A DNA stretch of 55,334 bases, taken from positions 1 through 55,334 of IMG/VR virus record IMGVR_UViG_2737471838_000004; one strand, 5' to 3'. Both the position numbers and the translations under genes were made by a program. Below the pieces are notes generated by a model. It worked only from the letters and a program-made list of their open reading frames with translations, was not told the DNA's origin and did no database searches. Below, in pieces: positions 8,505 through 27,666 of the stretch (position 1 is the stretch's first letter; each line of letters starts with the position of its first letter). Source of the DNA: a virus. Taxonomy: Duplodnaviria > Heunggongvirae > Uroviricota > Caudoviricetes.

Positions 8505-9063
8505 ATAGACCTCCAGTTTCGTGTAATTTCGTGTAACCGGCACCAGCTTTGTTTAGCTCTTCAATCATAAACGACCGCCACGCAACGGCGGCGTTAATCG
8601 CCATCTCGAGACCGCCCCACGACATAACGCTAAATGATTTGCTAATTCTTTTAGCGTTATCAGTGGTAATGCGTGCTCTAATAGATCTACCTTCTGCGTG
8701 CCAACACACTCCAAAAGGCAAGCCGTTAAACCTTATTGAACGACCTACAGTCATGTTTCTGGCGTTGCCTTTTTTATCTGTTACGCGTATGTTGTTGAAT
8801 TTATTGTTAAGCCCATTACCATCAATGTGATCTATGATTTCACCGCGTTTTAATTTTCTGCCGCTGCATAATTCGAAAACAATCCGGTGTGCATAATAGC
8901 GGCGGCCCTTCCATGTAATTTTCCAATACTTATTGCCGCTTTTTGCTGCTACTATTTTCCCCGCTGCGTCGCCCGCCCGTGCCGTTCTGCTGTTAGCGGT
9001 GACCTTCCACCTTAAACATGAAGGCGAATCCTCATCATAAACAAACAATTCAGACCAGTTCAC
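8497..9063 (-). CDS. HNH homing-endonuclease-like protein (HNH + AP2-like domain) inserted between tail genes I and J
   Basis: 188 aa; YAHRIVFE...GEIIDHIDGNGLNN...NIR motif pattern of HNH_3/AP2 endonucleases; paralogous to three other ORFs in the window. Confidence 0.7.
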   Translation of the reverse strand: MNWSELFVYDEDSPSCLRWKVTANSRTARAGDAAGKIVAAKSGNKYWKITWKGRRYYAHRIVFELCSGRKLKRGEIIDHIDGNGLNNKFNNIRVTDKKGNARNMTVGRSIRFNGLPFGVCWHAEGRSIRARITTDNAKRISKSFSVMSWGGLEMAINAAVAWRSFMIEELNKAGAGYTKLHETGGLYV

Positions 9064-9607: not shown

Positions 9608-10281
9608 TTGTCAGATCTCCATATTGAGTTGGTCTGTCGAACATACGCAGGCCGCATTTGCTCGCGGCGGCTTAATAGTCCGGCATTGTCATGATGCAAA
9701 ACAGTATTGTCTCCCAGGTAAATCATCGCGTGACATGGGTCAGCGCCTTTAAACGGCTGGCGGATAATCACATCACCTGGCTGAATGCTTTGCGCGTCAA
9801 CCTGATAAAACCCGTTTAGCGGCAAGTTTTTTAAATACAGGTTTTCCCCACGCAGCCACCACCCATCGTTGCGCTCAAAGTCCGGTAGATCCACGCCACA
9901 AAGGTGATAGGCGTCACGGAAAAGCGAGTAACAATCTGTTTTCCCGTGCTCAAATTTACGGCCCAACAGGTGAGCCACCGGGCGGAATTTTCTAACCATG
10001 CCACCGGAACACAAATACCACGGCAGGCCGGAAATAACCTGCTGTTGTCGATCCCGTGCTGACAATATCAACGAATTGTCAGTATGGGAGTGAAAAACGG
10101 CGGTTATAACGCCTAATTCGTCAGCTTTGATATAATCGTCAGGCGATATTTTAAAGCTGTTGTGCGGCGTTTCAGACACGTTTAAGCACGGGTAAAAATA
10201 ATCGTTATCTATCACCAACCCGCACACTTCCTCGCGCTGGTGGGCTGCCGCATAGCGAATCATTTTATCTTCAAGTGCCAT
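9550..10281 (-). CDS. K: tail assembly protein K (MPN/JAMM + NlpC/P60 domains)
   Basis: ORF 9550..10377 trimmed to the ATG abutting the L stop; JAMM motif HSHTD and NlpC/P60-like Cys (DCYSLF); conserved position between L and I. Confidence 0.75.
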   Translation of the reverse strand: MALEDKMIRYAAAHQREEVCGLVIDNDYFYPCLNVSETPHNSFKISPDDYIKADELGVITAVFHSHTDNSLILSARDRQQQVISGLPWYLCSGGMVRKFRPVAHLLGRKFEHGKTDCYSLFRDAYHLCGVDLPDFERNDGWWLRGENLYLKNLPLNGFYQVDAQSIQPGDVIIRQPFKGADPCHAMIYLGDNTVLHHDNAGLLSRREQMRPAYVRQTNSIWRSDKCSNLDLRAIFEDITARCV

Positions 10282-10283
10282 AA

Positions 10284-10988
10284 TTAACCGACCTTGCTTG
10301 ATCCGGGGAAACATGAAATTGGTAACGGATTGGGGCGCGGGAAACGCAAACGGCAACCGCTCAGGCGGTGGCTGCATTTATCCAGTTTTGGATCGCTGGT
10401 CGATTCGTCTTTATCTGTAGCTACAGGGCCGCCACTGTATCCGCAACCGTCGCCCCGGTATTGCCACTGGCAAACGTCAGCGAGGATTGTGCGCCCAGGG
10501 ATAACTGCCTTGTCGGCATCAATTGGCGTTGAAAGTTCATATTGCACCTGGTCGGCTGTTTCTTCGCTCATCGCCTCAACGACGTAAAAAGATACAGCCT
10601 CGATAGATGGATCTGCATCTGGATTGCCATTGGGGAAGTTGACAGCGTCCAGATATTTTACTTCCACCTGGCGGCGCGTAACCTTCATTCCTCGCAGGTC
10701 GTTGAAATCGTTGTTCATCCCGGTGATTAGCCCGCCAATGTTGGCTACTACCATTTGCGGGCGCGAGTAAACGCCTTCGTTTTTCATTTCGAAGCCAGTA
10801 GCCTCGATTGGGTAGCTGTTGTAAGCCAAGCCCTTCCAGATAACCGGGCCGTAATAGCCATTCGTGCCGGAATGGAAGCGGATAACCTCGCCACCCAGGG
10901 GCGTGAGGTCTAATTCAAACAAGTCAATTACCGCTCCGACCCCTGCATCGACGGAATCAATAATCATTTCTGTAGGTATGCTGCGCAT
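10284..10988 (-). CDS. L: minor tail protein L
   Basis: 234 aa; clear similarity to lambda gpL (FLDAVNF.NGN, RGD.CGYSG, DKCS..LSGC). Confidence 0.85.
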   Translation of the reverse strand: MRSIPTEMIIDSVDAGVGAVIDLFELDLTPLGGEVIRFHSGTNGYYGPVIWKGLAYNSYPIEATGFEMKNEGVYSRPQMVVANIGGLITGMNNDFNDLRGMKVTRRQVEVKYLDAVNFPNGNPDADPSIEAVSFYVVEAMSEETADQVQYELSTPIDADKAVIPGRTILADVCQWQYRGDGCGYSGGPVATDKDESTSDPKLDKCSHRLSGCRLRFPRPNPLPISCFPGSSKVG

Positions 10989-11041
10989 TTTATCACCTTG
11001 TCATTTTGTGATCGCCATCACGCTAAATCATACCAAAACGG

Positions 11042-11070
11042 TTGATAGCGCTTTTTACAATATGTATATT
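11042..11070 (+). promoter_or_regulatory. sigma70-like promoter of moron cassette B (TTGATA-17-TATATT), -10 overlapped by inverted repeat ACAATAT-gt-ATATTGT
   Basis: near-consensus -35/-10 with 17-bp spacer in the L/M intergenic region, upstream of plus-strand ORFs. Confidence 0.4.
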
Positions 11071-11116
11071 GTACTCAAAAGGAAGCATGGTTAACAAAAT
11101 GGCGCGGAGGTGTTAT

Positions 11117-11272
11117 ATGGCTGACAAGGTGTGGAGGTTGACGGTGTTCCTGGCTGATGGCAGGGAAATGACTGTAGCTCTGTATAAAGACGAAGGCGAG
11201 GCACTGACTGACGCGCTTTTACTTGCTGAAGATGACCGCGTTTTGGGGTACAGGATAGAACCTGTCAAATGA
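11117..11272 (+). CDS. hypothetical small protein (moron cassette B)
   Basis: ORF 11042..11272 trimmed to the ATG preceded by GGAGG (MADKVWRLTV...); alternative start at 11087. Confidence 0.4.
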   Translation: MADKVWRLTVFLADGREMTVALYKDEGEALTDALLLAEDDRVLGYRIEPVK

Positions 11273-11284
11273 GAGGTTAACAAA

Positions 11285-11638
11285 ATGCAAAAGTATCGTC
11301 TTGATGTCTGGATGGCTGGTAGTGATGATTGGGAAGGTTACGGCTTGCATGACAGTTACGAAATGGCGGTCGAGGAAGGAGAAAAACTCGTTCGATTCTT
11401 CGGTCGCGCAAGAGAATTCAAAATTACTCCAGTACAAATACCGGATAAGGTGGAAGATATGAACCCGAAAGATATTAACTTTAACGTCAATGTTGAATTT
11501 GCTGATTCTATGGATCAATCTTGCCCTGGCGAAATACACGCAAAAGGTTTCCCGGCTGACGATCCTGAAGCAAAACGTGAATACGAAAAAGCGGCAAAAG
11601 ATTTCTGTATCGACAATTTGTCTGCGTTCAATAAATAG
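11285..11638 (+). CDS. hypothetical protein (moron cassette B)
   Basis: 117-aa ORF, acidic, tightly spaced after previous ORF. Confidence 0.5.
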   Translation: MQKYRLDVWMAGSDDWEGYGLHDSYEMAVEEGEKLVRFFGRAREFKITPVQIPDKVEDMNPKDINFNVNVEFADSMDQSCPGEIHAKGFPADDPEAKREYEKAAKDFCIDNLSAFNK

Positions 11639-11647
11639 GGTGGGAGT

Positions 11648-11896
11648 ATGGCGCGGCGTAATCACGGGGATTATGTGTACACGTTGAAACAGGCCGCCCG
11701 CCTTATCGGTTATCATGAACACGAATTTATTGATTTGCTGATTGAGCGCGGGATACTGTACCAGGTCTGTTTAACACTGTACCCGAAAGCGAAATACCTA
11801 CAGGAAAAGTTATTCATCATCATGACGGATGAAAACCAGGTCAACCATTCATTCGTTACTGATAAGGGCGTTAATTATCTGCGTGATAACTTATAG
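11648..11896 (+). CDS. hypothetical protein, possible HTH (moron cassette B)
   Basis: 82-aa ORF; GGGAG RBS; segment YTLKQAARLIGYHEHEFIDLL resembles a helix-turn-helix. Confidence 0.45.
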   Translation: MARRNHGDYVYTLKQAARLIGYHEHEFIDLLIERGILYQVCLTLYPKAKYLQEKLFIIMTDENQVNHSFVTDKGVNYLRDNL

Positions 11897-12052
11897 GTGA
11901 CAGATTATGAAAAATAGAAGTTTTGGCGCTAATAATAATGGGACTGATAGTATTTGGCGTTCATGCTGCCGATTGGGACTGGGCGGCGATAGCCAATAAT
12001 ATGGCGCACGCACACCCAATGAGTTTGCTGTATATTAACTACTAAAAGAAAA

Positions 12053-12080
12053 CCCCGCACGAAGCGGGGTTGTTTTTATA
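12053..12080. terminator. bidirectional rho-independent terminator, near-identical to the one at 4521..4550
   Basis: stem CCCCGC/GCGGGG, loop ACGAA, T-tract; about 41 bp including the preceding AACTACTAA shared with the 4509..4550 site (2 mismatches). Confidence 0.6.
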
Positions 12081-12276
12081 CACCATCAACCAAAAATAAA
12101 ACCTCCTTGCCTTCCCTGGATCTGCATCCTACATACCCATCACCAACATCATGAAGATACCATGTATCGCCATTGTCAGCCTTTACAGTAAGGTCGTTGA
12201 TCTCGTAGTCGTCAAATAATGTAAAAGCGTCAGTTTTGTCCACTACACAAGTCCCGTACATAACAACCACCCCCAA
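12076..12276 (-). CDS. hypothetical small protein downstream of M
   Basis: 66-aa ORF immediately after M on the same strand. Confidence 0.35.
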   Translation of the reverse strand: MGVVVMYGTCVVDKTDAFTLFDDYEINDLTVKADNGDTWYLHDVGDGYVGCRSREGKEVLFLVDGV

Positions 12277-12630
12277 TTAGCCAACAACTTGCTCAAATGT
12301 TGCGTTTAGCGTGTATACAGGCCCGTCCTTTGTCATACTCCAGCTACGGCAAACAAAAAGCCTTTGCACGCCATCCATAGACGGCGACCAGTAAAAAGCC
12401 TCGACAGCGCCGCGCGCCCTCAAGAATGCTTCTGCCTGGATCGCCACGTTCCCACTATCACCGCATCCTGCGCTACTGCCTTTAAAAACCAGGGTGTAGC
12501 TATCAAGCAACGTGTTAATCCCTTTCGCCTGGCGCTGTTCATAACCATCACCAAGTTTAACGACCGACACATTTGGTTCCCTGGTCACGCTGTAGCTTCT
12601 TTGCGGCGTCCATCTGAAAACTTCCGGCAT
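12277..12630 (-). CDS. M: minor tail protein M
   Basis: 117 aa; lambda gpM-like motifs (FRW.P, GDGYEQR, FEQVV); GGGGGAA RBS. Confidence 0.8.
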   Translation of the reverse strand: MPEVFRWTPQRSYSVTREPNVSVVKLGDGYEQRQAKGINTLLDSYTLVFKGSSAGCGDSGNVAIQAEAFLRARGAVEAFYWSPSMDGVQRLFVCRSWSMTKDGPVYTLNATFEQVVG

Positions 12631-12729
12631 GATTCCCCCTATAAGTTACATATTGCATACATCTTTACGCGCTTCTACGCGAAAAATGATAACTTCGTCA
12701 CAAGAATTATACCCAGTTTACGAAATGGC

Positions 12730-12758
12730 TTCACACAGGACGCAACAAGATGTATACA
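12730..12758 (+). promoter_or_regulatory. candidate promoter of moron cassette C (TTCACA-17-TATACA) with upstream AAATGGC module
   Basis: 17-bp spacer; the 12-mer AAATGGCTTCAC is shared with the cassette D promoter at 15951..15962. Confidence 0.35.
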
Positions 12759-12799
12759 GAAAGCAAGAAGAGAAAGCAGTACCGACAAAGGGGGCCAAT

Positions 12800-12955
12800 A
12801 TGGAACGCTATGTAGTGGTAATGCTAAACAAAGCATTCGAACAGGTGGAAGTTGCGATTGTGAAGGGTTTTGATGATGCATTCAAATACGGTCAATTCAT
12901 GATGAATGCAAAAGAAGATGAATACCGTGATTTCTTCCTGAAAGTGGTCAACTGA
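12800..12955 (+). CDS. hypothetical small protein (moron cassette C)
   Basis: ORF 12629..12955 trimmed to the ATG with AAAGGGGG RBS (MERYVVVMLNK...). Confidence 0.4.
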   Translation: MERYVVVMLNKAFEQVEVAIVKGFDDAFKYGQFMMNAKEDEYRDFFLKVVN

Positions 12956-12975
12956 TTGATTGCGTGGGGTGAGTT

Positions 12976-13230
12976 ATGAAATTGGTGGCGATTGGCAAAA
13001 ACCTGAAAGCACAGAAAAACGCACAGGAACGGATCATCAAAAAAGGCAAGGCTTTATTAAATTCTTTCCTGAAAAAAGAGGCCAACCCCAAAAAATTACG
13101 CGATGGCTACGGCTATAAATTTGACATCAACCCCGATTGGCGGTTATTCAGCGAAGATTTAAAGATGTGGTTAATTATTGACCATCTGGAATACAACCGC
13201 CACTGTGGCGTAAAAGGGGCGCATAAATGA
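12976..13230 (+). CDS. hypothetical basic protein (moron cassette C)
   Basis: 84-aa Lys-rich ORF. Confidence 0.45.
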   Translation: MKLVAIGKNLKAQKNAQERIIKKGKALLNSFLKKEANPKKLRDGYGYKFDINPDWRLFSEDLKMWLIIDHLEYNRHCGVKGAHK

Positions 13231-13533
13231 GGTGAAATATGGATGACGATAAATTCACCTGGCGGGAGATCTGGAACATCTGGCAGGTGATGTTTGCTCG
13301 CAGCTACATAGCAAGAAACGGCAGGTTGTGATTTGCGGAGGAAAATAAAATGAAAAACCCGGCAAATAAAAGCAATGTAAAACGTATGGCATGGGTGCTA
13401 AAATATATGGATAGCAAAGGGGATACATATACATGTCCATTTTTCAGGTATACTGACGCGGTGTTTACAAGAAGTGTACACGGAGGGAAAATTGAGAGAG
13501 GATATACAAGATTTGAGAATAACTAAAAGATAA

Positions 13534-13560
13534 CCCCGGCATTGTACCGGGGTTTTGTTT
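13534..13560. terminator. bidirectional rho-independent terminator (cassette C / tape measure gene)
   Basis: stem CCCCGG/CCGGGG, loop CATTGTA, T-tract TTTTGTTTATTTG; preceded by TAAAAGATAA. Confidence 0.55.
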
Positions 13561-15907
13561 ATTTGCGGCGCGGTTGCAACATTCCTCCCGGTCGTTGCGA
13601 TTCCCTTGCCATCATTTTCATTGCTACGCGCTCCATCGTCTGCTCAAGTCTGCGGCTATCTTCGTCGCTAAATCCGTTTGTGGTCTGAACTGTGATTTGC
13701 ACAGGCATATTGATGCCGCCACCATTGAAGAGATCGCGGCCAGGAATTACCCTACCATTTTCGCCAGGAATCATATACTGACGCCCGTTGCTCGTCTGGA
13801 ATAGCTCAGGTATTCCGTGTTCCCCTACTCGATACAGGCTACCACCATTAACAGAACCACCATTATAACGCCCGCCACCAAAGATTGACGTTGCCAGCGA
13901 CATGATCGCAGAAAGCGCCGCAGCACCAGCCGCCGCCCAGCTACCACCAGTTGACGCAGCCGTAGCCGCCGCTGCCGGGGCCGCCGCCGCTGCAATCTGG
14001 CCTTGTGCCGCTACCGCGCCTGCCGTGGTACTTGCTTGCGTGGCCTTGCTTTGTGTTTCCATCATTAACTGATCTGCTATCCAGTTAGCGGCAATTTCTG
14101 ATAGTTTGTTGCCAACGGTGTTAAGTATGCTACTTCCCAGGTTGGCAAAAACCTCGCTTAATGATTGAGTACCGTTTAACAGTCCTGTAAGGGCATTGCC
14201 CATGCCACCTTTCAGGCCGCTGGCGCAAGCGCCGATCAGTCCGTTTGTTTCGCTTTGCGCCTGCCATTGCTCCCACTTCAGATCCCGGATCTGTTGTTCG
14301 TATTCCAATTGCGCCTGTCTCTGTTGCGCCTCTGTAGCGCCCAGGTCCAATAGCATTTGCTTTCTTACGGCCCATTCATTTTGCGCCTGTTTGATTGGGT
14401 CAATTTCGCCCTTAAGCTGGTCCATTGGGCTAACTATGTGGTCCCATTTGTCGCGTAGCTCATCAACAGGGATTTGCGCCAATTCGTCCTTCAGTTCCTT
14501 GCCTATACCTTTCTGCGCGGCCTTGTACTCAAGGAGGGTTATTTTTCCCTGGGCAAATGCGGCGTCAATGGCCTTGCCGTTCTCCAGTGCTTTACGCATA
14601 GCGGCGGCGTCTTTGTTGTACTGGTCAGAGACTTTTATACCTTCATCACCAAGCCGATCAGCTTCAGATTTCTTGTCTTTTTTGCCCTTTTTACCTTTTT
14701 TCGGTTTACCAACTGGCTGATCGAATCCCGTGATCTTACCATCGTCAGCCTCACCCTGTTTCTCCATGAACTCATCATAGGCGGCAGTTGCGTTTTTAAT
14801 GTCGTTTGCAAACGTCATGACCTTACCAACTGTAGGGCCAAATTTCTTCTCGTTGTTGCTATTTAGCTCTTCCTTGCGCTTGTCAATGATTTCCTTCATC
14901 CATTTGTAGCCATCCATTAGCGCCTTGATTGGCGTTACCATCCTGATAATCTCTTCCGCCACCTCGCCAGCCTTAACAGCAACATCATCAAACATGTCGA
15001 TAAATTCGCTGCCAGCCGTTTTTAGTGTATTGAAACATGTTGCGGCGAATTTTGCGCCTTTACCTAATCCCTCAACGCCACCAGTGATTAAGTCTATTGC
15101 CGACACAACGCCATCTGATATGCCGAAAAGATCGTCTAGCTGTTCGACAAGTCCCATAACCTCAACTTTAAGCTCGTTGAAGGCCATGCCGGATGTGCGC
15201 GGCAACTGTGCGAACTTCTCGTTTGTTTCCTGCGTGGCGGCCTGGATCGCGTTAAGCATCCTTTCAGCAGTGATCTTGCCGTCCAGCATTTCAGCGCGGA
15301 ACTGACCCATTGACAACCCCATCTGTCGGGCCATTTCCTGTATGATTGTTGGGGTGTTGTCACGGATTGAGTTAAATTCTTCAGCCTGCAACACGCCAGC
15401 ATCAATAGCCTGGCGGAACTGGCGCATGGAGTTTGATAGTTGTTCCGCAGACACGCCGCCCAGGTTGCCGAGTTTTTGCAGCGTGCTAACCAGGTTGAGG
15501 ACCTGGCCTTCCGTAGCGGATGTGTTTTTTAGCGATATAGCAAGACCTTGCCACAGATCGCCAGTATCCTTGAGGCTTTGGCCTGTTTCTTTTGATATTT
15601 CTTTCAGTCTATTGAAAACGCGTTCCGTGGCCTCCGCTTCACCTGTAAGCAGTTTGATTTTTACGCGAAGCATTTTTGCCTGCTCCGCCATGTCAATAAA
15701 CTGGCGAACCGCCTCCGCAGCAAGCAACAGATGAATGACCCTGGATAGTGCTTTGATTGAAGTCTTAAGCGTGTTCACCTGGCGGTCAGCGCGTTTTGCG
15801 CCACGCTCGATACTGTCAAAAGCCTGGTCCGCCTGTCGCTGAGCGACTAGAAGTTGACCAGTTTTTGCATCAACTTCGTAATAAATTGTACCTAAACTGG
15901 TGGACAT
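13559..15907 (-). CDS. tail length tape measure protein
   Basis: 782 aa; long alpha-helical protein with Gly/Ala-rich C-terminal part; positioned between tail chaperone and M. Confidence 0.85.
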   Translation of the reverse strand: MSTSLGTIYYEVDAKTGQLLVAQRQADQAFDSIERGAKRADRQVNTLKTSIKALSRVIHLLLAAEAVRQFIDMAEQAKMLRVKIKLLTGEAEATERVFNRLKEISKETGQSLKDTGDLWQGLAISLKNTSATEGQVLNLVSTLQKLGNLGGVSAEQLSNSMRQFRQAIDAGVLQAEEFNSIRDNTPTIIQEMARQMGLSMGQFRAEMLDGKITAERMLNAIQAATQETNEKFAQLPRTSGMAFNELKVEVMGLVEQLDDLFGISDGVVSAIDLITGGVEGLGKGAKFAATCFNTLKTAGSEFIDMFDDVAVKAGEVAEEIIRMVTPIKALMDGYKWMKEIIDKRKEELNSNNEKKFGPTVGKVMTFANDIKNATAAYDEFMEKQGEADDGKITGFDQPVGKPKKGKKGKKDKKSEADRLGDEGIKVSDQYNKDAAAMRKALENGKAIDAAFAQGKITLLEYKAAQKGIGKELKDELAQIPVDELRDKWDHIVSPMDQLKGEIDPIKQAQNEWAVRKQMLLDLGATEAQQRQAQLEYEQQIRDLKWEQWQAQSETNGLIGACASGLKGGMGNALTGLLNGTQSLSEVFANLGSSILNTVGNKLSEIAANWIADQLMMETQSKATQASTTAGAVAAQGQIAAAAAPAAAATAASTGGSWAAAGAAALSAIMSLATSIFGGGRYNGGSVNGGSLYRVGEHGIPELFQTSNGRQYMIPGENGRVIPGRDLFNGGGINMPVQITVQTTNGFSDEDSRRLEQTMERVAMKMMARESQRPGGMLQPRRK

Positions 15908-15940
15908 GATTTAACCTCGTAAAGTGTGATCCTGATCTCT

Positions 15941-15986
15941 ATTTTATACAAAATGGCTTCACTTCAACGAATACATTTTGTATAAA
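15941..15986 (+). promoter_or_regulatory. candidate promoter of moron cassette D (TTCACT-17-TATAAA) bracketed by a perfect 13-bp inverted repeat TTTATACAAAATG / CATTTTGTATAAA
   Basis: inverted repeat arms overlap the -35 upstream region and the -10; located just upstream of plus-strand small ORFs. Confidence 0.4.
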
Positions 15987-16280
15987 GAGGCTAAAGGAAA
16001 GGGATAGAGTAAAGGGATTTAGAAGACCGGATTAACCGGAGGAAGCAAAAGAGGATAAGAAAATGAAAAACTACTACCGACCCAACGAGCATGAGCACTA
16101 TGCCGACTTTATCGAAGAAATGCTGAAAGCACTTAAAAACAAGAAATAAGCTGGGCAGGCAAATGGACACAATCAAAACAGTTATAGATGTATATATTAC
16201 GGCATGGTTAGCATTTAATGTGATGGCTGTGCTAGTGCTGGCAATGACAACCGAAGATAAACGTAATTAGGGGGTGTATC

Positions 16281-16583
16281 ATGGAAATGGTAATTTGCTT
16301 CGTAGGATTCATCGCAACTATGGTTGTGGCTCAGAAAAAACATCTGAATATGCTATTGGCATTCTTTGGTGCGCTGATTTGCTGGCCTGCTGTATTGATT
16401 TACGCACTGTGTGTTAACAAAAAGATGTTTAAACACTACGTCGATGCATTGACTTTCGTTAACATGGAGTACCCAAACGCAACTGACGTACAGAAAACAC
16501 AGGTTGCAACTTACCTATACGATAACGTGTACGATATTCACGACCTGGATGAGGCAAGATGCAGATTTGCAGCATACAAATAA
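16281..16583 (+). CDS. small integral membrane protein (moron cassette D)
   Basis: 100 aa with two hydrophobic helices; preceded by two mini-ORFs (about 16063..16149 and 16164..16271) and followed by a terminator. Confidence 0.5.
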   Translation: MEMVICFVGFIATMVVAQKKHLNMLLAFFGALICWPAVLIYALCVNKKMFKHYVDALTFVNMEYPNATDVQKTQVATYLYDNVYDIHDLDEARCRFAAYK

Positions 16584-16591
16584 AGATAAAG

Positions 16592-16618
16592 GCCCGGTTA
16601 ATTCCGGGCTTTTTCTTG
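16592..16618. terminator. bidirectional rho-independent terminator (cassette D / tail chaperone gene)
   Basis: stem GCCCGG/CCGGGC, loop TTAATT, T-tract TTTTTCTTG; preceded by TAAAGATAAA. Confidence 0.55.
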
Positions 16619-17278
16619 CTCGCGTTTTTTCATCAATTCCAGCACCCTTTTAGCGGCCTCCATTTGCTCATCATAATCACGTTTATTTATCTGAACGTTT
16701 GGCTTACGTTTCTCGTTTCTTTCGTCTGGTGGCGTTTTAGCGCGTACAGCGGCCCTATATCCGGTCATTGTCATACCCCACGCCTCAGACTCAGACAACC
16801 CCAGGTGAGCAACGGCAGAATAAACATACTCAAGGATGTCGAATGTTGGCTTGTACTCACCCTCCTGGTTTGTGACCGTGTCTTCATCTGGTCCGTCACC
16901 AATTAAACCGTGATACATGCAGTGTTGCGCCAGTGTGATAACGTCGCTGGTGGGCATCAATCCAGGTTTTAGTCTTAACTTACCAGAAGGAGTAAAGCTG
17001 CATTCGCCCAATAACGGGCCTATTTCGTCCTCTGAGCAACATTTCAGGACGTGGATGGACGTTTGCACTAACTCACCATAACAACGCGCCAGAATGCGAT
17101 TGCGGAGGTCTGTATCCGTTGGCAAGCGTTGTGGGTATTTGCCACCATGCACCGTTGCGAAATATTCAACCAGTTCCCTGTCACTGCCGATCTTAGCCAT
17201 TGCAGCAAAGCAGGGATTGAATTCGTAACGTCTGCCATCAACCACAACCGCAAACTGTCCTGTTCGAACGTGAATCAT
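16598..17278 (-). CDS. putative tail assembly chaperone
   Basis: ORF 16598..17287; sits between major tail and tape measure genes, acidic with basic C-terminal tail; no obvious G/GT frameshift partner; start probably ATG at 17278 (GGGTGA RBS). Confidence 0.4.
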   Translation of the reverse strand: MIHVRTGQFAVVVDGRRYEFNPCFAAMAKIGSDRELVEYFATVHGGKYPQRLPTDTDLRNRILARCYGELVQTSIHVLKCCSEDEIGPLLGECSFTPSGKLRLKPGLMPTSDVITLAQHCMYHGLIGDGPDEDTVTNQEGEYKPTFDILEYVYSAVAHLGLSESEAWGMTMTGYRAAVRAKTPPDERNEKRKPNVQINKRDYDEQMEAAKRVLELMKKREQEKARN

Positions 17279-17286
17279 AGTTGTCA

Positions 17287-17315
17287 CCCTAAAAATAAAG
17301 GGGCCAAATGGCCCC
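17287..17315 (-). terminator. stem-loop terminator/attenuator after major tail gene
   Basis: GGGGCCATTTGGCCCC hairpin followed by TTTATTTTT on the minus strand. Confidence 0.45.
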
Positions 17316-17326
17316 GATGTTAATAT

Positions 17327-17809
17327 TTACTGTTGCACTGACGGAACGTCACCTACTGTGACCTTGCCAGCGCTTTCGCACTCAATTGACCATGTTGATA
17401 CATCGTCGTGCGGATCTTCTTCTTTAAAGGAGGTGCAAAGGAACGGGCCTTCTGTTACGTCGAGCGGAGAAACGAGTTTAAGCCAGACGTAAGGCTGCGC
17501 ACCAGTTGTTTCGCCAGGGTTAATAACGTGGCGTTTAAGTACTTTCTGGTTGTGGATTTCTTCGGTGCGGGATACGCCGTCACCTGAGAAGGCAACAGAT
17601 TTGTAAGTTACCAGTGATTCTTTGGTGTAGTCTGCTGATTTATCAGCGGTGGCGTCTGCGGTTTCCCATTCTACGGAAAGAGATTTGCCACGCATCATGC
17701 CTAACGCTTTATAAGCGCCTTCTTCAGGTTTCGCATTAGGGCAAGCGATAGCGTAAAATACGGCAACGTCGCGGCCTAAGAACGAACCTTTATCACAAGT
17801 CTGAGACAT
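17327..17809 (-). CDS. major tail (tube) protein
   Basis: 160 aa; position and composition typical of siphovirus major tail subunits; followed by an attenuator hairpin. Confidence 0.7.
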   Translation of the reverse strand: MSQTCDKGSFLGRDVAVFYAIACPNAKPEEGAYKALGMMRGKSLSVEWETADATADKSADYTKESLVTYKSVAFSGDGVSRTEEIHNQKVLKRHVINPGETTGAQPYVWLKLVSPLDVTEGPFLCTSFKEEDPHDDVSTWSIECESAGKVTVGDVPSVQQ

Positions 17810-17822
17810 GTTTAGTTACCTC

Positions 17823-18209
17823 TTATCTAGATATGATGGTTTGGAAAGCTACGGTGAAAATAAAGCGCCCTTCTCTCGTCTGCATTGCAGGAATAGCGCC
17901 AATTGGTTTCATGTGAGTAATTTTATCAGTTTTGTATTCGGTTATCATACTCTGGCGTATTGCGTCGGCGAGGTCTTCCACTTCACTGATATTTGCGTCA
18001 TTGCGTGCTGAAATTACCAGGATGCGGAAATAATCACGGGTTACTGCTTCTTCACCAGCCGCGCCACCGTTTTGCTGTATGACAATGTACCTGTCGTTAT
18101 TCGAATTGGATCGCTCATTCCAGAAACGGGCCTGCAAAATATAACCTTCGTCGTACCCGTGGGACTTAATCCAATCCCTTATTTCGTCATATACTTCGCT
18201 GCGTTTCAT
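17823..18209 (-). CDS. tail completion / head-tail joining protein
   Basis: 128 aa; conserved position in head-tail joining block. Confidence 0.5.
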   Translation of the reverse strand: MKRSEVYDEIRDWIKSHGYDEGYILQARFWNERSNSNNDRYIVIQQNGGAAGEEAVTRDYFRILVISARNDANISEVEDLADAIRQSMITEYKTDKITHMKPIGAIPAMQTREGRFIFTVAFQTIISR

Positions 18210-18679
18210 GATTGTTTCGTCCAGTACCCAAGTTTTATCGTGTTCCAGATTTCATTGAAATTGTCTGGTTCCTCGAACGCCTTGCGCAAAAATTCCGGTT
18301 CAGCGTTAGGATCCCAGTAATAACCTTTCCCAGTACCTCCGCCGAACTCAACTACCTGTTTCGGGCCGAAATCAGAAAGGTTGTTGGTTTTACCAAAATG
18401 CTCGCGAGGCTGCCCCATTAATGTCCCCGGCATGTCATGCACCCATTCAGCATAGCGGGCGGTATATCCAACCCTTAGGCAAAGGCCGTTGCCGTTTTTC
18501 TCGACAGTCTGGTACATGCTGTTAATCAAAAAACCCGTATCAACTGGCGTCATTCCAGATGCAAGGCCGGACGCAACGTTTCCAACAATCCACAGCACTT
18601 CATAAGTCTTTTTGTCTGCTATATTCCTGATTTCTTCCGTCATTTTCATACGGACGCGTCTGACGCCTTTCAGTGGCAT
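18206..18679 (-). CDS. HK97 gp10-like tail component
   Basis: 157 aa; overlapping start/stop with neighbours; composition typical of HK97 gp10 family. Confidence 0.55.
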   Translation of the reverse strand: MPLKGVRRVRMKMTEEIRNIADKKTYEVLWIVGNVASGLASGMTPVDTGFLINSMYQTVEKNGNGLCLRVGYTARYAEWVHDMPGTLMGQPREHFGKTNNLSDFGPKQVVEFGGGTGKGYYWDPNAEPEFLRKAFEEPDNFNEIWNTIKLGYWTKQS

Positions 18680-18681
18680 AA

Positions 18682-19071
18682 TTAACCTCCTGTGACGATC
18701 TTATAATCCGGCGTGTCGTTAAACATACTCATGTCCCATTCAACGATCCCGGTTATAAAATTGGCCCCAGCCGCCAGCGGGTCAGCAATAGCAGTGGTGT
18801 CGCCAGTAGCAATCATCCAACCCTTTTCCGGGCGCTGCACTGGCTGCATCTTGTGAAGCAGTTCGGTATATACGGTTATTGTGTTGCTAACCTCATTCCC
18901 GTTTGCGTCTGTTGCGGTTCCGTCAGTGCGTTCCCATGCACAATCAATAAGATATGGCGTTCCGTATACATCGGAGTTTGTCCAGTCGTCACGCGTCACG
19001 GGGTAAATGGTGGCCAACGCTTTGTAGCTGAATCTCGCGATCTTACTCATAGCCATAGCTCCATTTAACAA
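18682..19071 (-). CDS. head-tail adaptor / head closure protein
   Basis: 129 aa; conserved position. Confidence 0.5.
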   Translation of the reverse strand: MLNGAMAMSKIARFSYKALATIYPVTRDDWTNSDVYGTPYLIDCAWERTDGTATDANGNEVSNTITVYTELLHKMQPVQRPEKGWMIATGDTTAIADPLAAGANFITGIVEWDMSMFNDTPDYKIVTGG

Positions 19072-19258
19072 TTTTCGGATGGGTTTTCGCCACGCGCGGG
19101 CAGAGAATTACCCATTCGCCAGCGTCATTGAGATATGCCGCCACCTGCCGCCCGGTATCAGTCTGCACCCACACGCGGGTGAACAGCTTCGGTAATAGCG
19201 GCTTCGGTAATGTAAGGTCATTCCACATTGCTACATCCTCCCGCTCTTGCCTATCCAC
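19043..19258 (-). CDS. hypothetical small protein
   Basis: 71-aa ORF overlapping neighbours in head-tail block. Confidence 0.3.
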   Translation of the reverse strand: MDRQEREDVAMWNDLTLPKPLLPKLFTRVWVQTDTGRQVAAYLNDAGEWVILCPRVAKTHPKIVKWSYGYE

Positions 19259-19617
19259 AGCCCAGCGTGCGCGGTATTCTGTGGATCTGCCGGAACCAAT
19301 TCAGCGGTGCAGTGATGTTTATCGAGGGAGTAAAGCAACGAATAGGCTGCTTTCCATTTTTGGTTGAAATCGACATATCGGTATGACTGGCTTGCGCCGT
19401 TCGTACCAGTATGCGAGGAAACGTATTTGTTAGCCTGGGTAAGTCCTAACAGGCCAATCAGGTAAAGTTGAATTAATGTTGCAGTGGAGGCCGGATAGTT
19501 GGCATCAAGGCATTCGTTAACGCTGTTTGCCTGCTCCACCAGCAAGGATAAGATAACGTCTGGCAGGTCAATACCCTGGCTTTCAAGATATTCCCGCGCC
19601 TGTTCTGTAGTGACCAT
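19231..19617 (-). CDS. head-tail connector (gp6-like) protein
   Basis: ORF 19231..19632 trimmed to MVTTEQAREY with GGAGAAG RBS; first gene after the capsid terminator. Confidence 0.5.
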   Translation of the reverse strand: MVTTEQAREYLESQGIDLPDVILSLLVEQANSVNECLDANYPASTATLIQLYLIGLLGLTQANKYVSSHTGTNGASQSYRYVDFNQKWKAAYSLLYSLDKHHCTAELVPADPQNTAHAGLWIGKSGRM

Positions 19618-19639
19618 TTGTCTTCTCCACATACAAAAA

Positions 19640-19668
19640 AAATCCCCGGCATCGCGCCGGGGAGTTAC
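19640..19668 (-). terminator. rho-independent terminator after major capsid gene
   Basis: CCCCGGC GCGAT GCCGGGG hairpin followed by TTTTTTTT on the minus strand. Confidence 0.55.
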
Positions 19669-19681
19669 AGGAAATTTATAA

Positions 19682-20734
19682 TTAAGATTGTTTGCCGTAA
19701 ACGACTCCGGAACGGCCCAACATGTCGCAGGTGATTTGTAAACCTTCGGCAGACATGATTTTGAAATTGTAGTTATCGGTAGGCATGGTGCGAGGAACAG
19801 GCACTACGCCAGTAGTCATACCGATCAGCGGGGTGATGACATCACGGCGGCGCTGATAAGCAATGATTTCGTTGCCTTTCAGTGCAAAGCTCTGACGAAT
19901 TTCACCAACAGGTGCGAACGGCATAACAGTTTTGAGCACGCTACCAACAACAGCACCGTTAACGATGTGCGGGCGGGCCAGGTTAGCCATAATTTCAGGT
20001 GACACCCACATGACATCATATTTTGCAACGAAGTTATTGCGGGCCAGAACACCGAATTCACCAATGGTGAAGAAGTTGATCAGTGCGTCAAATTGCGCAG
20101 TGGTCAGGTCAGTGGTCAGGGTCAGTTGTTGGGTGTTTTTGTGGTTTTTAATGCCCATTGCTTTATGACCATCAACAACCATTGCGTCATTACCTTCAAG
20201 GTAGAATTTAACGCGGCGTTTGTTGAATTTTTTCAGTTTCAGGCGCTGACTGTCCAGGGCAAGGTCAATGCCCACAGTGTTTAAGCCATGAGCTAAACGC
20301 CAGTTGACACCGTAACCAGCGGTAAACATCGGGATCGGGTCGCCATCGCTGCCGTATTCTGTGTGATCAAAGCCGTGCGGTGCCTGGCCATCCATAGACA
20401 TCACGACCTCATCGCTAATGTCGCCGGATACGCTGTACATTTTCAGCGTTTTACCGATAGGCAGTACGGTTTGAACACCCATCAGGTCGTTGACGATTTC
20501 GATGCCGATTTCTTCGGTGTTCAGTTCGATGATCTGGTTATCAATTTCTTTCCAGAACTCTTGAGCGAAGCCACCAACAGCGTTGCAGGCCAACATTTCA
20601 GCGGTCATGTTTGCCTTATTTGCAGTAATCATGGCGTCATGTTGAGCGTTAAAGATATTACGTTGCGCCCACAGTTCATTCCAATGGCCCTGCATACGGG
20701 CGTTGGTAGCGAGGTTTTCTTTAGTAAAGTACAT
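19682..20734 (-). CDS. major capsid protein
   Basis: 350 aa; position after decoration/scaffold genes and followed by a strong terminator. Confidence 0.8.
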   Translation of the reverse strand: MYFTKENLATNARMQGHWNELWAQRNIFNAQHDAMITANKANMTAEMLACNAVGGFAQEFWKEIDNQIIELNTEEIGIEIVNDLMGVQTVLPIGKTLKMYSVSGDISDEVVMSMDGQAPHGFDHTEYGSDGDPIPMFTAGYGVNWRLAHGLNTVGIDLALDSQRLKLKKFNKRRVKFYLEGNDAMVVDGHKAMGIKNHKNTQQLTLTTDLTTAQFDALINFFTIGEFGVLARNNFVAKYDVMWVSPEIMANLARPHIVNGAVVGSVLKTVMPFAPVGEIRQSFALKGNEIIAYQRRRDVITPLIGMTTGVVPVPRTMPTDNYNFKIMSAEGLQITCDMLGRSGVVYGKQS

Positions 20735-20751
20735 GTTTTTCCCCTTTTAAA

Positions 20752-21123
20752 TTAAGCTACGCGAACGCGGATGAAGTCTTCAGCTTCCAGTTTCACGTCT
20801 TCCTGGCAGTACGCGACAGTAACTTCGTTTACCTGGATGGCCTGATCTTTGGTGTAAGTACCAAGTGCAACGCGCATTGCGAATTCGCGGCCTGTTTCAA
20901 AGTAGTCAGCAACAACGGTTTCATTCGTTGCGATGGCATCGGCGATGGTTTTGCCTTCATGGAAAGCAGGGTTAACGATATACAAGCGGCCTTCTGCTGT
21001 GGTCGCTTTAACAAATTTACCGCCTTCCAGTTTAACCAGTTCACCAGGTTTTAATTCAGCACCAGCGAGGCGGGTTTCAGTGATGGATTTACCATCAATA
21101 TTTACACGACGAAAACGAAACAT
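20752..21123 (-). CDS. head decoration protein
   Basis: 123 aa; gpD-like size and position directly upstream of capsid gene. Confidence 0.5.
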   Translation of the reverse strand: MFRFRRVNIDGKSITETRLAGAELKPGELVKLEGGKFVKATTAEGRLYIVNPAFHEGKTIADAIATNETVVADYFETGREFAMRVALGTYTKDQAIQVNEVTVAYCQEDVKLEAEDFIRVRVA

Positions 21124-21139
21124 TGTGATCCCCTTTTAA

Positions 21140-22474
21140 TTAGAAATAGGTGTTAAAGTCTGGTACTTCGCCTTTTTTACCTTCGCTTGCTGCGTTGGTA
21201 GCCATCGGCGCGGCTTTGCCCAGGGATTTAAACATTGCATCGAGCGCATCGCCGCTTAATGCGTTAGCAACAATTTCGCCGTGAACTTTTGCTACTGCGG
21301 CGCGTTTTTCTTCGACTTCTTTATCTGCTTTGGCGGCAATTTCTTTTTTAATTGCTTTCTGGTTGGTCTGCAATTCTTCTACGCTTGCCTGTACTGGTTT
21401 TAATGCCTCTGCTACTGCATTAGCGATATTGGCTGCTAAGCCTTCGTTAATTTCTTTTACCAGTTCGGCGCGTTCTTCAGGTGTTAAAGGCATGTCGGTT
21501 TCCTCTTTCTTATTGGCCTGGATTTTTTCTTTCAGGATGAATAAATCGGATAGGTGTTCAGCGAATTGAGTAAACCAGGATTTCGATTCCTCGTTAGTTT
21601 GCAGTTCGCCATCATTGAGAATTATTTTACCAGCCTGTTTTTTGTATGTGCAAACTTGAGCAATTTCACGTTGTTGTGCTTCATGATATACACCATCGAC
21701 CAGGATGCCACCATCATAAGCACAATAAACGTAGCTTACTTGTTCGTCATTGAAGTCATGAATATAAACGTAGTCGGCGTCTTTATGTTTTTCTTGGAGC
21801 GCTGCGTAAAGCATTTTCTCTGTGGCACGATAGCTACCCTCCATCATCGCTTTTTGTGTCAGTGGTCTGGCGGTTGCGGTATTAACCATCAGGCCAACCC
21901 CCTGTTCCGGTGATGCGGCGGGCGGCTCATGCAGTAAAATAGCGTCATGGTCGATCGACATAATTTTAACAACGCTGTCAGCACCCTGGGCTTTCATCTC
22001 TTCCGTAGCTGGCATACGTTGACGATATACGGCGACGGATGACCAGATCGGATCTTTGCTTTCGCCTTTTTCCAGTGCTTCAAGTCGGCTCAATAACTCG
22101 CGGCCCTGTTCTGAATGGCTGGCGGTTTCAACATCAACCCATTTTTCCACATAAACACGATTGCCGCGTAATTCAACATTTCTGTTCCATGCGCCGCAAA
22201 AACCAATATTCAGTCCTTCCGGGCTAAATGCGGAAACGAATTCACCGTTAACCGTAGGATGGCCCAGCGGTGCGAGCGTACCTTCCAGAGATTGATAATT
22301 AGCAATGATTTCAGCTTCCGGGTAATATTCCCGATTCATAACGATATTAAAGGGCAACGTATAAGACGGGACTACAATGTGTTCGCGCCCGTTATATGTT
22401 TCCCGGCGGATGGTATTAGCGGTTAATTTGGTATTAACCTGAATCAGTTCTTTATTCACGGTTTTTACTCCCAA
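21140..22474 (-). CDS. putative scaffolding / prohead maturation protein
   Basis: 444 aa; Ala/Lys/Glu-rich helical C-terminus; located between MuF-like and decoration genes. Confidence 0.45.
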   Translation of the reverse strand: MGVKTVNKELIQVNTKLTANTIRRETYNGREHIVVPSYTLPFNIVMNREYYPEAEIIANYQSLEGTLAPLGHPTVNGEFVSAFSPEGLNIGFCGAWNRNVELRGNRVYVEKWVDVETASHSEQGRELLSRLEALEKGESKDPIWSSVAVYRQRMPATEEMKAQGADSVVKIMSIDHDAILLHEPPAASPEQGVGLMVNTATARPLTQKAMMEGSYRATEKMLYAALQEKHKDADYVYIHDFNDEQVSYVYCAYDGGILVDGVYHEAQQREIAQVCTYKKQAGKIILNDGELQTNEESKSWFTQFAEHLSDLFILKEKIQANKKEETDMPLTPEERAELVKEINEGLAANIANAVAEALKPVQASVEELQTNQKAIKKEIAAKADKEVEEKRAAVAKVHGEIVANALSGDALDAMFKSLGKAAPMATNAASEGKKGEVPDFNTYF

Positions 22475-23361: not shown

Positions 23362-24742
23362 TATCGCGGCTGGAGGTATTCGCCTGATTATCTTCTTCAC
23401 CTTCATCATCGTTTTCCTCTTCCGTTTCCACTACACTGGCAGGGCCATCGTATCCGGCAGCCTCGCGGATCTCGTCACCGCTAAATATTTCTTCACCAGT
23501 AGCCAAACAAGCCTGATTGATTTGTGCCATTTTGTGTGCCGCTTCCAGTAGTTCGGCTTTGGTCATGGCGTTCAGGTCGTCCCATATCACTGATACGTCA
23601 ATTGGCATACTGATAAGGCGGAGATCTGCCATCTTGCTGAATAGATCCTCAAGTTCACCGCCGATTTCCTCCCTGCGGGTCATACAGCGGCTGTTGAAGT
23701 AGCGGAGGTCTTCGGTTGATGCGCGTTCGCCCTGCTGGTTCCCAACCAGGATGCGAGTCGGAATATCAATACCAGCGGCGGCGGTTTGCAGGTTGACATC
23801 ATAGGTTGCTGACGGGTCAGATACGGCAGTCACCAGCGGGCTAACTGTGGCCCCTTGTAATGCCATCATCACGTCGTTACCCTTATTCATTTCATCCGCT
23901 GCCTCGTTGAATTTTTCTCGAAGCTCTGTGACGTCGCATCCGTATGTGGCTGCCAGTGACCGGAAGTCAATATCCTTGTCGAACGAGATAGCTAACTGGC
24001 GGGCAGCGTTTTTCAGGAATGATTCACCGCTACCCCCTTCCACTTTCTCAAGCGACACAAAGGCGTTATATGACGGCTCAAGGAAGGCTATTGCATCATC
24101 AGAATAGTCACCGAAGATGAATATGCGGTCAGGGTGGATCCTTCTTGCTATGGTCTTACTGTTAATGCGTTCCTTGTACTCCCACCACGTCGGCAGGCCA
24201 TAGTTTTCATTATCCGGGTTTTCTTCGAAGTCCTTCGGCGTCAGAGCACCAGCCCATGCCGGGGTAAATTTGGCAATGCCTACGCCTTTTGTCACAGGCT
24301 GGTCCCACGCCTTACCATCTCTGACATGAATCAACAGGCCAGCATAACGACCGATGAGGCGGCGGCGGTCACATTCGGCAATGACGCGCCAAAATCTGTT
24401 GTCGAACTGTTTCTTGATTTCTCTTTCCCAGGGTGTTTCCTTTTCGGCCTTCTCGTCTTCGGTTCCCTCGATTAGCGTTGGCATGGTTCTCCAGCAGGTA
24501 GTGACAATCTTTTCTACAGCACCATGAGCGATACCACCGCGACGATACAGCTTGTATAGATCGTCATAGGTTATTTCTTCTTTGAATCCGTATTCACTCC
24601 ACGCAGCATCACGTTTGGCATCTATCCCCATAGTGAATGGGTGTGCTGCGGCATAGCGGGCGTAGGCCGCCTGGCGTTGAGACAAGGCAGCATTAACCGC
24701 CAATTCTAAATTGGATGGCATAATGTTTACTCCTGAATACAT
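23351..24742 (-). CDS. portal protein
   Basis: 463 aa; acidic C-terminus, position after TerL; start may be ATG at 24721 (AGGAG RBS) rather than 24742. Confidence 0.75.
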   Translation of the reverse strand: MYSGVNIMPSNLELAVNAALSQRQAAYARYAAAHPFTMGIDAKRDAAWSEYGFKEEITYDDLYKLYRRGGIAHGAVEKIVTTCWRTMPTLIEGTEDEKAEKETPWEREIKKQFDNRFWRVIAECDRRRLIGRYAGLLIHVRDGKAWDQPVTKGVGIAKFTPAWAGALTPKDFEENPDNENYGLPTWWEYKERINSKTIARRIHPDRIFIFGDYSDDAIAFLEPSYNAFVSLEKVEGGSGESFLKNAARQLAISFDKDIDFRSLAATYGCDVTELREKFNEAADEMNKGNDVMMALQGATVSPLVTAVSDPSATYDVNLQTAAAGIDIPTRILVGNQQGERASTEDLRYFNSRCMTRREEIGGELEDLFSKMADLRLISMPIDVSVIWDDLNAMTKAELLEAAHKMAQINQACLATGEEIFSGDEIREAAGYDGPASVVETEEENDDEGEEDNQANTSSRDNAI

Positions 24743-24799
24743 GTTTACGCGTTGCTACGCGAAAAATAGAAAAACTTGTTGGTAGTTGTGAGGCAGATT

Positions 24800-26766: not shown

Positions 26767-26776
26767 ATTTCACCTC

Positions 26777-26860
26777 TCAATATTTATTGATGATATATAC
26801 GCAAGCAACAAAACTTGCACAGTATGTTAATACTTCCAACCAGTCGAATAGCTCTTTCAT
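26777..26860 (-). CDS. mini-protein, single hydrophobic helix (27 aa, MKELFDWLEVLTYCASFVACVYIINKY)
   Basis: hand-translated; ATGA overlap with preceding mini-gene; directly upstream of terS. Confidence 0.35.
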   Translation of the reverse strand: MKELFDWLEVLTYCASFVACVYIINKY

Positions 26861-27000: not shown

Positions 27001-27010
27001 GATTGCCTCT

Positions 27011-27082: not shown

Positions 27083-27097
27083 ATTGTTCCACCTTGT

Positions 27098-27142
27098 TTA
27101 CGCGAAGAAAACAATAACAACTAACAGCGTGCATATAGCCAT
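27098..27142 (-). CDS. possible micro-ORF (14 aa, MAICTLLVVIVFFA)
   Basis: hand-translated; weak RBS; may be non-coding spacer. Confidence 0.15.
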   Translation of the reverse strand: MAICTLLVVIVFFA

Positions 27143-27158
27143 GATTAAGAAATCACCG

Positions 27159-27664: not shown

Positions 27665-27666
27665 AA

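Follow-up and report, generated by a model that had tools for sequence, protein, structure and literature searches.

The DNA analysed here, all 55,334 nucleotides of the IMG/VR virus record IMGVR_UViG_2737471838_000004 (hereafter the window), carries what is, judged by sequence comparison, a real, family-wide, strongly constrained and previously undescribed cis-element in two copies. One copy lies on the minus strand upstream of the gene for a minor tail protein of the lambda M type (CATTTTTCGCGTAGAAGCGCGTAAAGATGTATGCA, 12654..12688), and the other, also on the minus strand, upstream of the portal gene (TATTTTTCGCGTAGCAACGCGTAAACATGTATTCA, 24734..24768). These intervals delimit the full block of about 35 nt that is common to both sites and spans (C/T)ATTTTT through a common CA. 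We tentatively read the element, with a probability of about 0.4, as a stem-loop in the sense-strand leader through which the processing, stability or translation of the mRNA would be controlled, probably with the help of a sequence-specific factor.

The window belongs to a temperate coliphage of the mEp021-like (mEpimmI) kind, whose late genes are encoded on the minus strand. In megablast searches, the M region matches mEp013, mEp554, mEp010, mEp044, mEp515, mEp021 and MagusPhagus at 83–96% identity, all of them members of the mEp021 group of Nus-dependent, non-lambdoid temperate coliphages. The mEpimmI family is the one described in PMC11893012, and its members were as common as lambdoid phages in the source collection from human faeces (PMC11893012). 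The element is not described in that paper, which mentions no hairpin, stem-loop or palindrome, and a full-text literature search for stem-loops of phage late operons, or for RNase E processing elements, in the neighbourhood of a portal gene returned nothing relevant. The gene 3' of the first copy was assigned through PF05939 (E 6e-29), and the second copy is flanked by TerL on its 5' side and by the portal gene (PF06381) on its 3' side, in agreement with the minus-strand locations upstream of M and portal given in the original prediction. The phage also encodes a lambda-type Q (PF03589).

The M start codon (ATG, 12630-12628, minus strand) is preceded by the Shine-Dalgarno sequence GGGGG at 12639-12635, and the corresponding AGGAG of the portal gene is found at 24734-24730 on the same strand. 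Translation of the portal likely starts at the ATG at 24721-24719 (minus strand), from which the MagusPhagus portal is annotated; the ATG of the longest open reading frame, 24742, falls within the element. The portal copy is thereby contained in a gap of 78 nt between the TerL stop codon (24802-24800) and the ATG at 24721. In the GenBank record of mEp021 (L002, MH706966.1, 28919-28960), the portal coding sequence begins at the ATG within the element and the annotated ribosome-binding site lies inside the coding sequence. The mEp021 sequence after AACATTAT (ATTGCGTTT...) also diverges from that of all relatives (GCCATCC...), which may reflect an assembly or annotation problem in this SOLiD-based genome. 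A separate annotation issue concerns Escherichia coli RefSeq prophages, for example NZ_CP023377.1 (2562545-2562630), where PGAP calls the portal gene "anti-CBASS protein Acb1 family protein". The same protein is Phage_portal_3 (PF06381) by Pfam and an annotated portal in mEp021 and MagusPhagus, and the Acb1 name is probably an artefact of naming.

Two accessory cassettes of opposite orientation enclose an island made up of M and a small gene downstream of it; bidirectional terminators at 12051-12071 and 13532-13554 mark the boundaries of the island. The cassette between the tape-measure gene and M occupies approximately 12800-13530 on the plus strand, and its homologue in mEp021 consists of genes 65-68 (L002 40127-41976). 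Its genes, with domains as scanned in mEp021, encode a 51-residue protein, followed by a ParE-like toxin (PF24732) and by a pair of treble-clef zinc-finger/CapR-homology proteins, of which one carries a T5orf172 domain in addition; the cassette resembles a toxin-antitoxin or defence island within the tail operon.

The M and portal copies are identical at 28 of 32 positions, and the number of such copies expected by chance is 0. The similarity noted in the original prediction was therefore genuine, with the count slightly higher than the "about 27 of 32" proposed and the block reaching further 3', to the CA at 12655-12654 and 24735-24734, where the similarity between the sites ends. Each copy consists of T5, followed by CGCG-N6-CGCG and then by TAAA(G/C)ATGTAT, so that the predicted arms, the preceding T-run and the following ATGTAT are present in both. 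The regions that precede the element at the two sites are not significantly similar (p = 0.92), which argues against a larger duplicated promoter-plus-leader unit. A degenerate 30-nt pattern with up to three mismatches occurs in the window at these two sites only, and the chance expectation for it was 0.00 in 100 dinucleotide-preserving shuffles. A covariance model trained on 31 distinct natural variants scored the M copy at 69.8 bits (E 3.5e-13) and the portal copy at 64.7 bits (E 5e-12); because the next-best match in the window reached only 14.8 bits (E ~1), we count exactly two copies. A partial third copy that had been proposed at about 27091..27107 amounts to a match of 10–12 nucleotides, gives no covariance-model match at E <= 10, and is absent from mEp021. 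The two copies are oriented alike: each lies on the strand that is transcribed for the late genes, between an upstream unit and a ribosome-binding site. The spacing differs from the 25–35 nt to the ribosome-binding site earlier claimed for both: measured from the extended hairpin, the Shine-Dalgarno sequence is 20 nt away at M and 5 nt away at the portal gene.

The element is present at 31 of 31 M loci (protein identity at least 84%) and at 49 of 49 portal loci (at least 83%) in IMG/VR, all of which were fetched through the M and portal proteins and thus independently of the element. Both copies were found in seven phage records. Among 5426 complete E. coli genomes, the portal site occurs in 34 and the M site in 34, at one place each per genome, and RefSeq carries no annotation at the M site in E. 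coli genomes. An exact-pattern scan of IMG/VR that left the 3' half of the loop free returned 88 stretches, nearly all of which were the same two sites in contigs of 50–57 kb. Three odd matches fell outside the two sites. The one inspected, TTCGCGTAGTATCGCGTAAACATACAT in IMGVR_UViG_3300002653_000003 (9038-9057), is part of the 3' UTR in a contig of a picorna-like RNA virus that encodes a 2809-residue polyprotein, and was treated as a chance match. Outside the family, M homologues of approximately 70% identity in other phages are without the element, as are the TerL-portal gaps of Klebsiella RAH1, Cronobacter ES2, ES18 and SPN3UB.

Two kinds of insertion adjoin the element in relatives. In one contig (L081, 4035-4508, minus strand), a gene for a 157-residue HNH homing-type endonuclease is inserted between the M leader and M, and the element, with the loop TAGAAA, is kept upstream of the insert; the conserved M leader comprises the element and ATGTAACTTAT. 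At the portal site, an insert of about 70 nt with the palindrome CTTCGAAAAATTTTCGAAG is found between the TerL stop codon and the conserved AAAATCTG that precedes the element. It is present at L009 (7983-8060) and at 13 other IMG/VR loci (for example L181, L192, L195 and L206), approximately one quarter of the relatives.

Nucleotide diversity among distinct sequences of the portal copy is 0.012; adjacent third-codon positions have values of 0.16-0.21, and the preceding 30 nt a value of 0.17. Diversity is 0.004 in the 12 nt between the element and the ATG, and the whole stretch from the portal Shine-Dalgarno sequence to the ATG (24719..24734) is conserved as strongly as the element. The M copy has a diversity of 0.084 compared with 0.23 at third-codon positions, so that the element as a whole evolves 3- to 15-fold slower than neighbouring third-codon positions. 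The M core is mostly invariant, with zero diversity at the U-run, most stem positions and the UAAA, and shows low-level variation at a few stem and loop positions. The loop is conserved asymmetrically, with an unvarying UAG and a 3' half that varies. Natural variants include a 1-nt loop deletion (TAGAT, with a 5-nt loop), a U-run shorter by 1 nt, and a 9-bp spacing of the half-sites in L116. Loop types are also swapped between the sites, with the portal-type CAA in the M copy of L112 and the M-type AAG in some portal copies (L190). The original prediction named absence from homologous phages as a refutation; the element is conserved in them and its diversity lies far below that of third-codon positions, and it is therefore functional.

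On the sense strand, the element is predicted to fold as CGCG-U/AGNN/R-CGCG, with a lower stem formed by the U-run and A-run that contains one bulged U. The predicted M stem-loop, taken from a 46-nt fold, extends over 12660..12688 (minus strand). Its lower stem pairs CAUUUUU with AAAGAUG around the bulged U at 12667, and its upper stem pairs CGCGU with GCGCG below the loop AGAA (12676-12673), giving a 12-bp helix CAUUUUUCGCGU / AGAA / GCGCG-(U)-AAAGAUG. In its 46-nt context this copy has a predicted energy of -13.6 kcal/mol (z = -3.39), and none of 200 shuffles was as stable. The sense strand is favoured over the antisense strand (-11.1 vs -5.6 kcal/mol), and the same holds for 20 of 20 M variants, with means of -9.35 vs -5.18 kcal/mol. 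The predicted portal stem-loop (24740..24768, minus strand) has a core hairpin of about -6 kcal/mol, with the upper stem CGCGU/ACGCG and the loop AGCA (24756-24753). A U.C mismatch, itself conserved, weakens the lower stem, the antisense strand folds equally well, and the 46-nt context (z = -0.54) is no better than shuffles.

Across the variants, the loops seen are AGAA, AGCA, AGAG, AGCU, AGCG and, once, GGAA. The 5' edge of the similarity between the two copies coincides with the base of the extended helix, while six conserved nucleotides 3' of the helix (UAU-N-CA) lie outside the hairpin. A longer lower helix in the M copy of the window is not conserved among relatives. With a U-run 5' and an A-run 3' of the hairpin, the arrangement is the mirror image of a terminator. 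As the original prediction held, an intrinsic terminator can be dismissed in either orientation: the U-run precedes the hairpin on the minus strand and the A-run follows it on the plus strand, on neither strand does a T-run come after the hairpin, and the terminator scan lists neither site.

Among the 31 distinct variants, 92.7% of the cells are paired in the sense strand. None of the 12 base pairs is altered on both sides, and the covariation score (0.096, compared with 0.112 in shuffles) is not above chance, a test that is low in power because the relatives are close (at least 83% protein identity). As there is no compensatory double substitution, the choice between RNA and DNA rests on weak asymmetries. 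In our own tally of alignment A1, where the element occupies columns 9-43, approximately six to seven one-sided changes of Watson-Crick pairs give a G.U pair in the sense strand, examples being TGCG in one or the other arm, A-to-G changes facing the U-run, and A10 to G, and approximately one to two favour the antisense strand. A metagenome scan in which the arms were left free yielded about 26 true copies among the matches listed, all with CGCG or TGCG arms, and the other matches listed were AT-rich chance matches. The invariant CGCG arms indicate selection on the sequence, which a DNA site would explain equally well.

In the reading that we prefer, a cis-acting stem-loop in the untranslated leader of the late mRNA, just before the portal and M ribosome-binding sites, would be recognized by a sequence-specific factor of the phage or host and would set the fate of the downstream message. 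Such a factor is suggested by the arms and the loop's 5' half, which stay the same instead of covarying. In the version that we favour, which is conjecture throughout, an endonuclease would cut the conserved U-rich tract that immediately precedes the hairpin, which would then form the new 5' end and shield the portal/head and M segments from decay that depends on the 5' end. The upstream RNA from which the segments would thereby be uncoupled is terminase mRNA in the case of portal/head and, in the case of M, untranslated RNA of about 2 kb that is antisense to the cassette. A role as translational operator would be an equally compatible variant. The case for a leader hairpin is indirect and draws on the position and orientation at both sites, the strong constraint, and the sense-favouring folds of M. 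The 1-nt offset in the lower stem (the bulged U) also favours a hairpin, because a two-fold symmetric site in double-stranded DNA would not accommodate the offset. The excess of one-sided changes to G.U in the sense strand, the natural variants with a shorter loop or U-run, the conservation of the loop in its 5' half alone, and the match between the 5' edge of the similarity and the base of the extended helix point the same way. The HNH insertion in L081 fits a leader or stability role better than M-specific translation, because the element stays at the 5' end of the unit. Counting against a leader hairpin are the lack of any pair changed on both sides, the weak portal fold with its U.C mismatch in the lower stem, the unequal distance to the Shine-Dalgarno sequence (20 vs 5 nt), and the conserved UAU-N-CA, which a hairpin leaves unexplained.

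The promoter-like context of the M copy is relevant to the readings that place the element in DNA. A TATAAT hexamer at 12706..12711 (minus strand), invariant in 27 of 27 distinct relatives, is a candidate -10 of a separate M promoter. It lies 17 nt upstream of the extended hairpin, its -35 (GTGAAG) is weak, and it was not called by the promoter scan; as an M promoter, it would put the element at about +12 to +46 of the transcript. The weak -35 overlaps that of a promoter-like TTCACA-17-TATACA on the plus strand (12730-12758), for the gene of the 51-residue protein that starts at 12800, and the M intergenic region (12631-12800, 170 bp) looks like a divergent promoter region. It also contains a CRP-like site (12702-12687), TGTGA-N6-TATCA in the window and TGTGA-N6-TCTCA in most relatives, whose centre is at about -70.5 relative to the start predicted on the plus strand. 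No comparable promoter precedes the portal copy in a scan of 10000-29000. In the same interval, a search for sigma-70 promoters (-35 and -10 with a spacing of 16–18 bp, at least 9 of 12 matches) did not list the element, which by eye has just a -10-like AAAnAT and no -35. A plus-strand (antisense) promoter running through the element was rejected on inspection, the hexamers being conserved neither between the copies nor among relatives.

A double-stranded DNA operator, in which a dimeric regulator of the phage or host would bind the inverted repeat TTTnCGCG-N6-CGCGnAAA as a repressor or roadblock, appears unlikely to us but deserves to be taken seriously. It could, for example, silence the TATAAT promoter before M, and read-through into the head genes, in the lysogen. 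Both CGCG half-sites are invariant instead of covarying, their centres are 10 bp apart and hence one helical turn, and the portal copy folds no better as sense than as antisense RNA. A protein bound to the M element, at about +12 to +46 of the conserved TATAAT, would block RNA polymerase; no promoter is evident upstream of the portal copy, however, and the two sites are the only ones in the genome, neither of them near a regulator gene. The geometry is also less regular than a dimer would suggest. The half-sites are 9 bp apart in the natural variant L116, the flanking complementarity is offset by one base so that two-fold symmetry does not extend beyond CGCG, and the centre of the site is conserved asymmetrically, with TAG fixed and the other half free. 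Furthermore, both sites have the same orientation relative to the genes, which is not required of a symmetric operator, and no candidate binding protein was recognized among the genes scanned.

Quite improbable, in our estimate, is an internal late promoter core without a -35 that depends on an activator and boosts transcription of the head and tail-tip genes atop Q antitermination. The original prediction, which named an RNA processing or stability element, translational control and a protein-binding site, does not list this reading, with which the data are also compatible. Here AAA(G/C)AT (12666-12661 and 24746-24741) would serve as the -10, CA as -1/+1, and the CGCG palindrome as an activator site at about -20.5. 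With T36 of alignment A1 as -7, the block shared by the copies spans exactly -34 to +1, and the invariant positions of the hexamer are A at -11 and T at -7, those most important for sigma-70, with -9 and -8 variable; the CA 6–7 nt downstream is conserved in both copies. Yet the scan for sigma-70 promoters did not call it, and a TG extension is lacking as well as a -35. The portal start would coincide with the first A of the AGGAG Shine-Dalgarno sequence and leave a leader of 13 nt. The CRP-like site at M, centred about -40.5/-41.5 from the CA start, would suit such a promoter but equally suits a class I site (-70.5) of the divergent plus-strand promoter. The late promoters of phage P1, with their Lpa-bound inverted repeat, provide a precedent (PMC10695390, PMC3152322), but no Lpa homologue (tblastn E > 3) or other late activator was recognized among the genes scanned, and the -22 region of P1 LPpac is unrelated. 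A lambda-type Q, together with a PR'-like promoter and terminator, should moreover already drive the whole late region. That the element has no function of its own, and is a duplicated remnant or recombination linker with copies kept alike by gene conversion, is very improbable. The swapped loop types in L112 and L190 do suggest gene conversion, and insertions (the HNH gene and the 70-nt palindromic insert) adjoin the element; against this, orthologous diversity is 0.012 compared with 0.17–0.21 in flanks and at synonymous sites, both copies are retained in every genome examined, and a direct repeat 12 kb apart is a deletion hazard that would be lost if useless.

The candidate late promoter PR' is located at 29640-29760 (minus strand), just upstream of the holin gene. 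It consists of TTGTGG-17-TAAAAT, then AACAAT, which is -10-like and falls in the early transcribed region, and finally the terminator CCCGGCCCCGCGCCGGGTTTTT. This arrangement, located downstream of the Q gene (PF03589), is similar to that of lambda PR'/tR'. The element was rejected as a Q-binding element: the spacer of mEp021 PR' has GTAGAGCGTAAACA and that of the window PR' has GTGGGTCGAAAACA, with the elements unchanged, and the 9-mer GCGTAAACA that is shared with the mEp021 PR' spacer is absent from the window PR'.

Another repeated sequence, the 10-mer TACAAAATGG, occurs 21 times in the window with up to one mismatch, compared with 6.1 +/- 2.4 expected, and goes undescribed in the mEpimmI paper (PMC11893012). 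Sites are found at 12719-12728 (+), 15947-15956 (+), 15973-15982 (-), 11093-11102 (+), 37162-37171 (+), 37227-37236 (-), 44934-44943 (-) and 50079-50088 (-). The 10-mer lies 1 nt upstream of the -35 of the PR-like promoter of mEp021 (window homologue 44934-44943) and of the accessory-cassette promoters that oppose the late genes (12719-12728 and 15947-15956), whereas the site at 11093-11102 is downstream of a predicted promoter instead. In the region upstream of the tape-measure gene, it is arranged as an inverted repeat of 11 bp, TATACAAAATG-N18-CATTTTGTATA. The 10-mer is probably the site of a phage regulator.

Several further classes were considered for the element and set aside. Rfam 15 gave no match at the gathering threshold across the window, and at E <= 10 none at the M site and two sub-threshold chance matches at the portal site. 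The conserved helix, just 12 bp with one bulge, is too short for an RNase III processing site, which requires duplex RNA of some 20 bp, or around two helical turns. A search for an antisense or small-RNA partner elsewhere in the genome gave just chance 9–11-mers. Compared by eye with the RfaH ops consensus, GGCGGTAGNNTG, the element shares only GTAG(C).

Late-gene control of the mEpimmI phages is undescribed beyond the predicted Q protein, and the element provides a handle on how these phages balance terminase, head and tail-tip expression, and on late operons that are interrupted by oppositely oriented accessory cassettes. Being small, present in two copies and easily mutated, it is a tractable experimental target. 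If it is an ordinary stabilizing hairpin, the gain would be modest. A more far-reaching speculation, to which we give little weight, is that these phages have a second layer of late control beside the lambda-type Q, in which a dedicated factor reads CGCG-UAG-NNN-CGCG at the head and tail-tip modules. The element would then represent either a new class of late promoter without a -35 and with a palindrome in the spacer, resembling P1 in layout but built of unrelated parts, or a new kind of signal in the leader RNA, by which transcription complexes or messages would be re-armed or protected once past the terminase genes and the antisense moron cassette.

Among known systems, one comparison is with the nut sites of this phage group itself, nutL, nutR1 and nutR2, which depend on Gp17 (PMC11893012). 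In the window, nut sites with boxA GCTCTTTAA and loops of the GNRA type are located at 37142-37100, 44645-44608 and 45871-45905, and the boxB hairpins of the phage have the form CGCU-GNRA-RGCG with the loops GAAA, GCGA and GGAAG. As in these sites, the element has a small hairpin with a GC stem in the leader RNA and a purine-rich loop closed by U. Unlike these sites, it has an AGNN loop that is not GNRA-like, and it is found in the late region, not behind early promoters. The search for boxA (GCTCTTTAA) found it at 37128, 44631 and 45871 only, with a weak match at 31819 and none near 12690 or 24770. A nut-like site for the N-like Gp17 was therefore rejected, since there is no boxA and the loops (AGAA, AGCA) are of the wrong type.

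Phage P1 carries 11 late promoters whose conserved inverted repeat of 9 bp is bound by Lpa (PMC10695390) and centred at -22 (PMC3152322). Promoters of the Lpa type also have a -10 hexamer 4 bp downstream of the repeat. The element resembles these promoters in having an inverted repeat approximately 20–22 bp upstream of a possible start, no -35, and copies before units of structural genes; its palindrome centre falls at -20.5 if CA is taken as +1, a start position that is assumed, compared with -22 in P1. It differs in that only two copies exist, the promoter is putative, and the sequence is unrelated to the -22 region of LPpac, ATGTGACTT, with its -10 TACCCT. The P1 Lpa system as such does not apply, as the best tblastn match of P1 Lpa in the window has an E value of 3.5 and the box sequence is unrelated.

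The loop invites comparison with a eukaryotic enzyme. Rnt1p, the RNase III of yeast, recognizes hairpins with AGNN tetraloops; the RNase III of E. coli is not known to have loop specificity. The element has, like Rnt1p substrates, an A-G-N-N loop on a continuous stem, but the stem is only 12 bp, and we regard the resemblance as a lead.

The preferred reading, a leader stem-loop, finds its counterparts in the processing of E. coli papBA by RNase E and in the 5' stabilizer hairpin of ompA, where leader or intercistronic stem-loops reportedly give differential mRNA stability. As in papBA and ompA, a short GC-rich hairpin is found in the untranslated gap just before a cistron, in the same orientation as the genes, and is adjoined by a conserved AU- or U-rich single-stranded tract. 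The element departs from them in that its arms keep their sequence, something for which a stabilizer that acts by structure alone has no need, and in that the same sequence is used twice in one phage genome.
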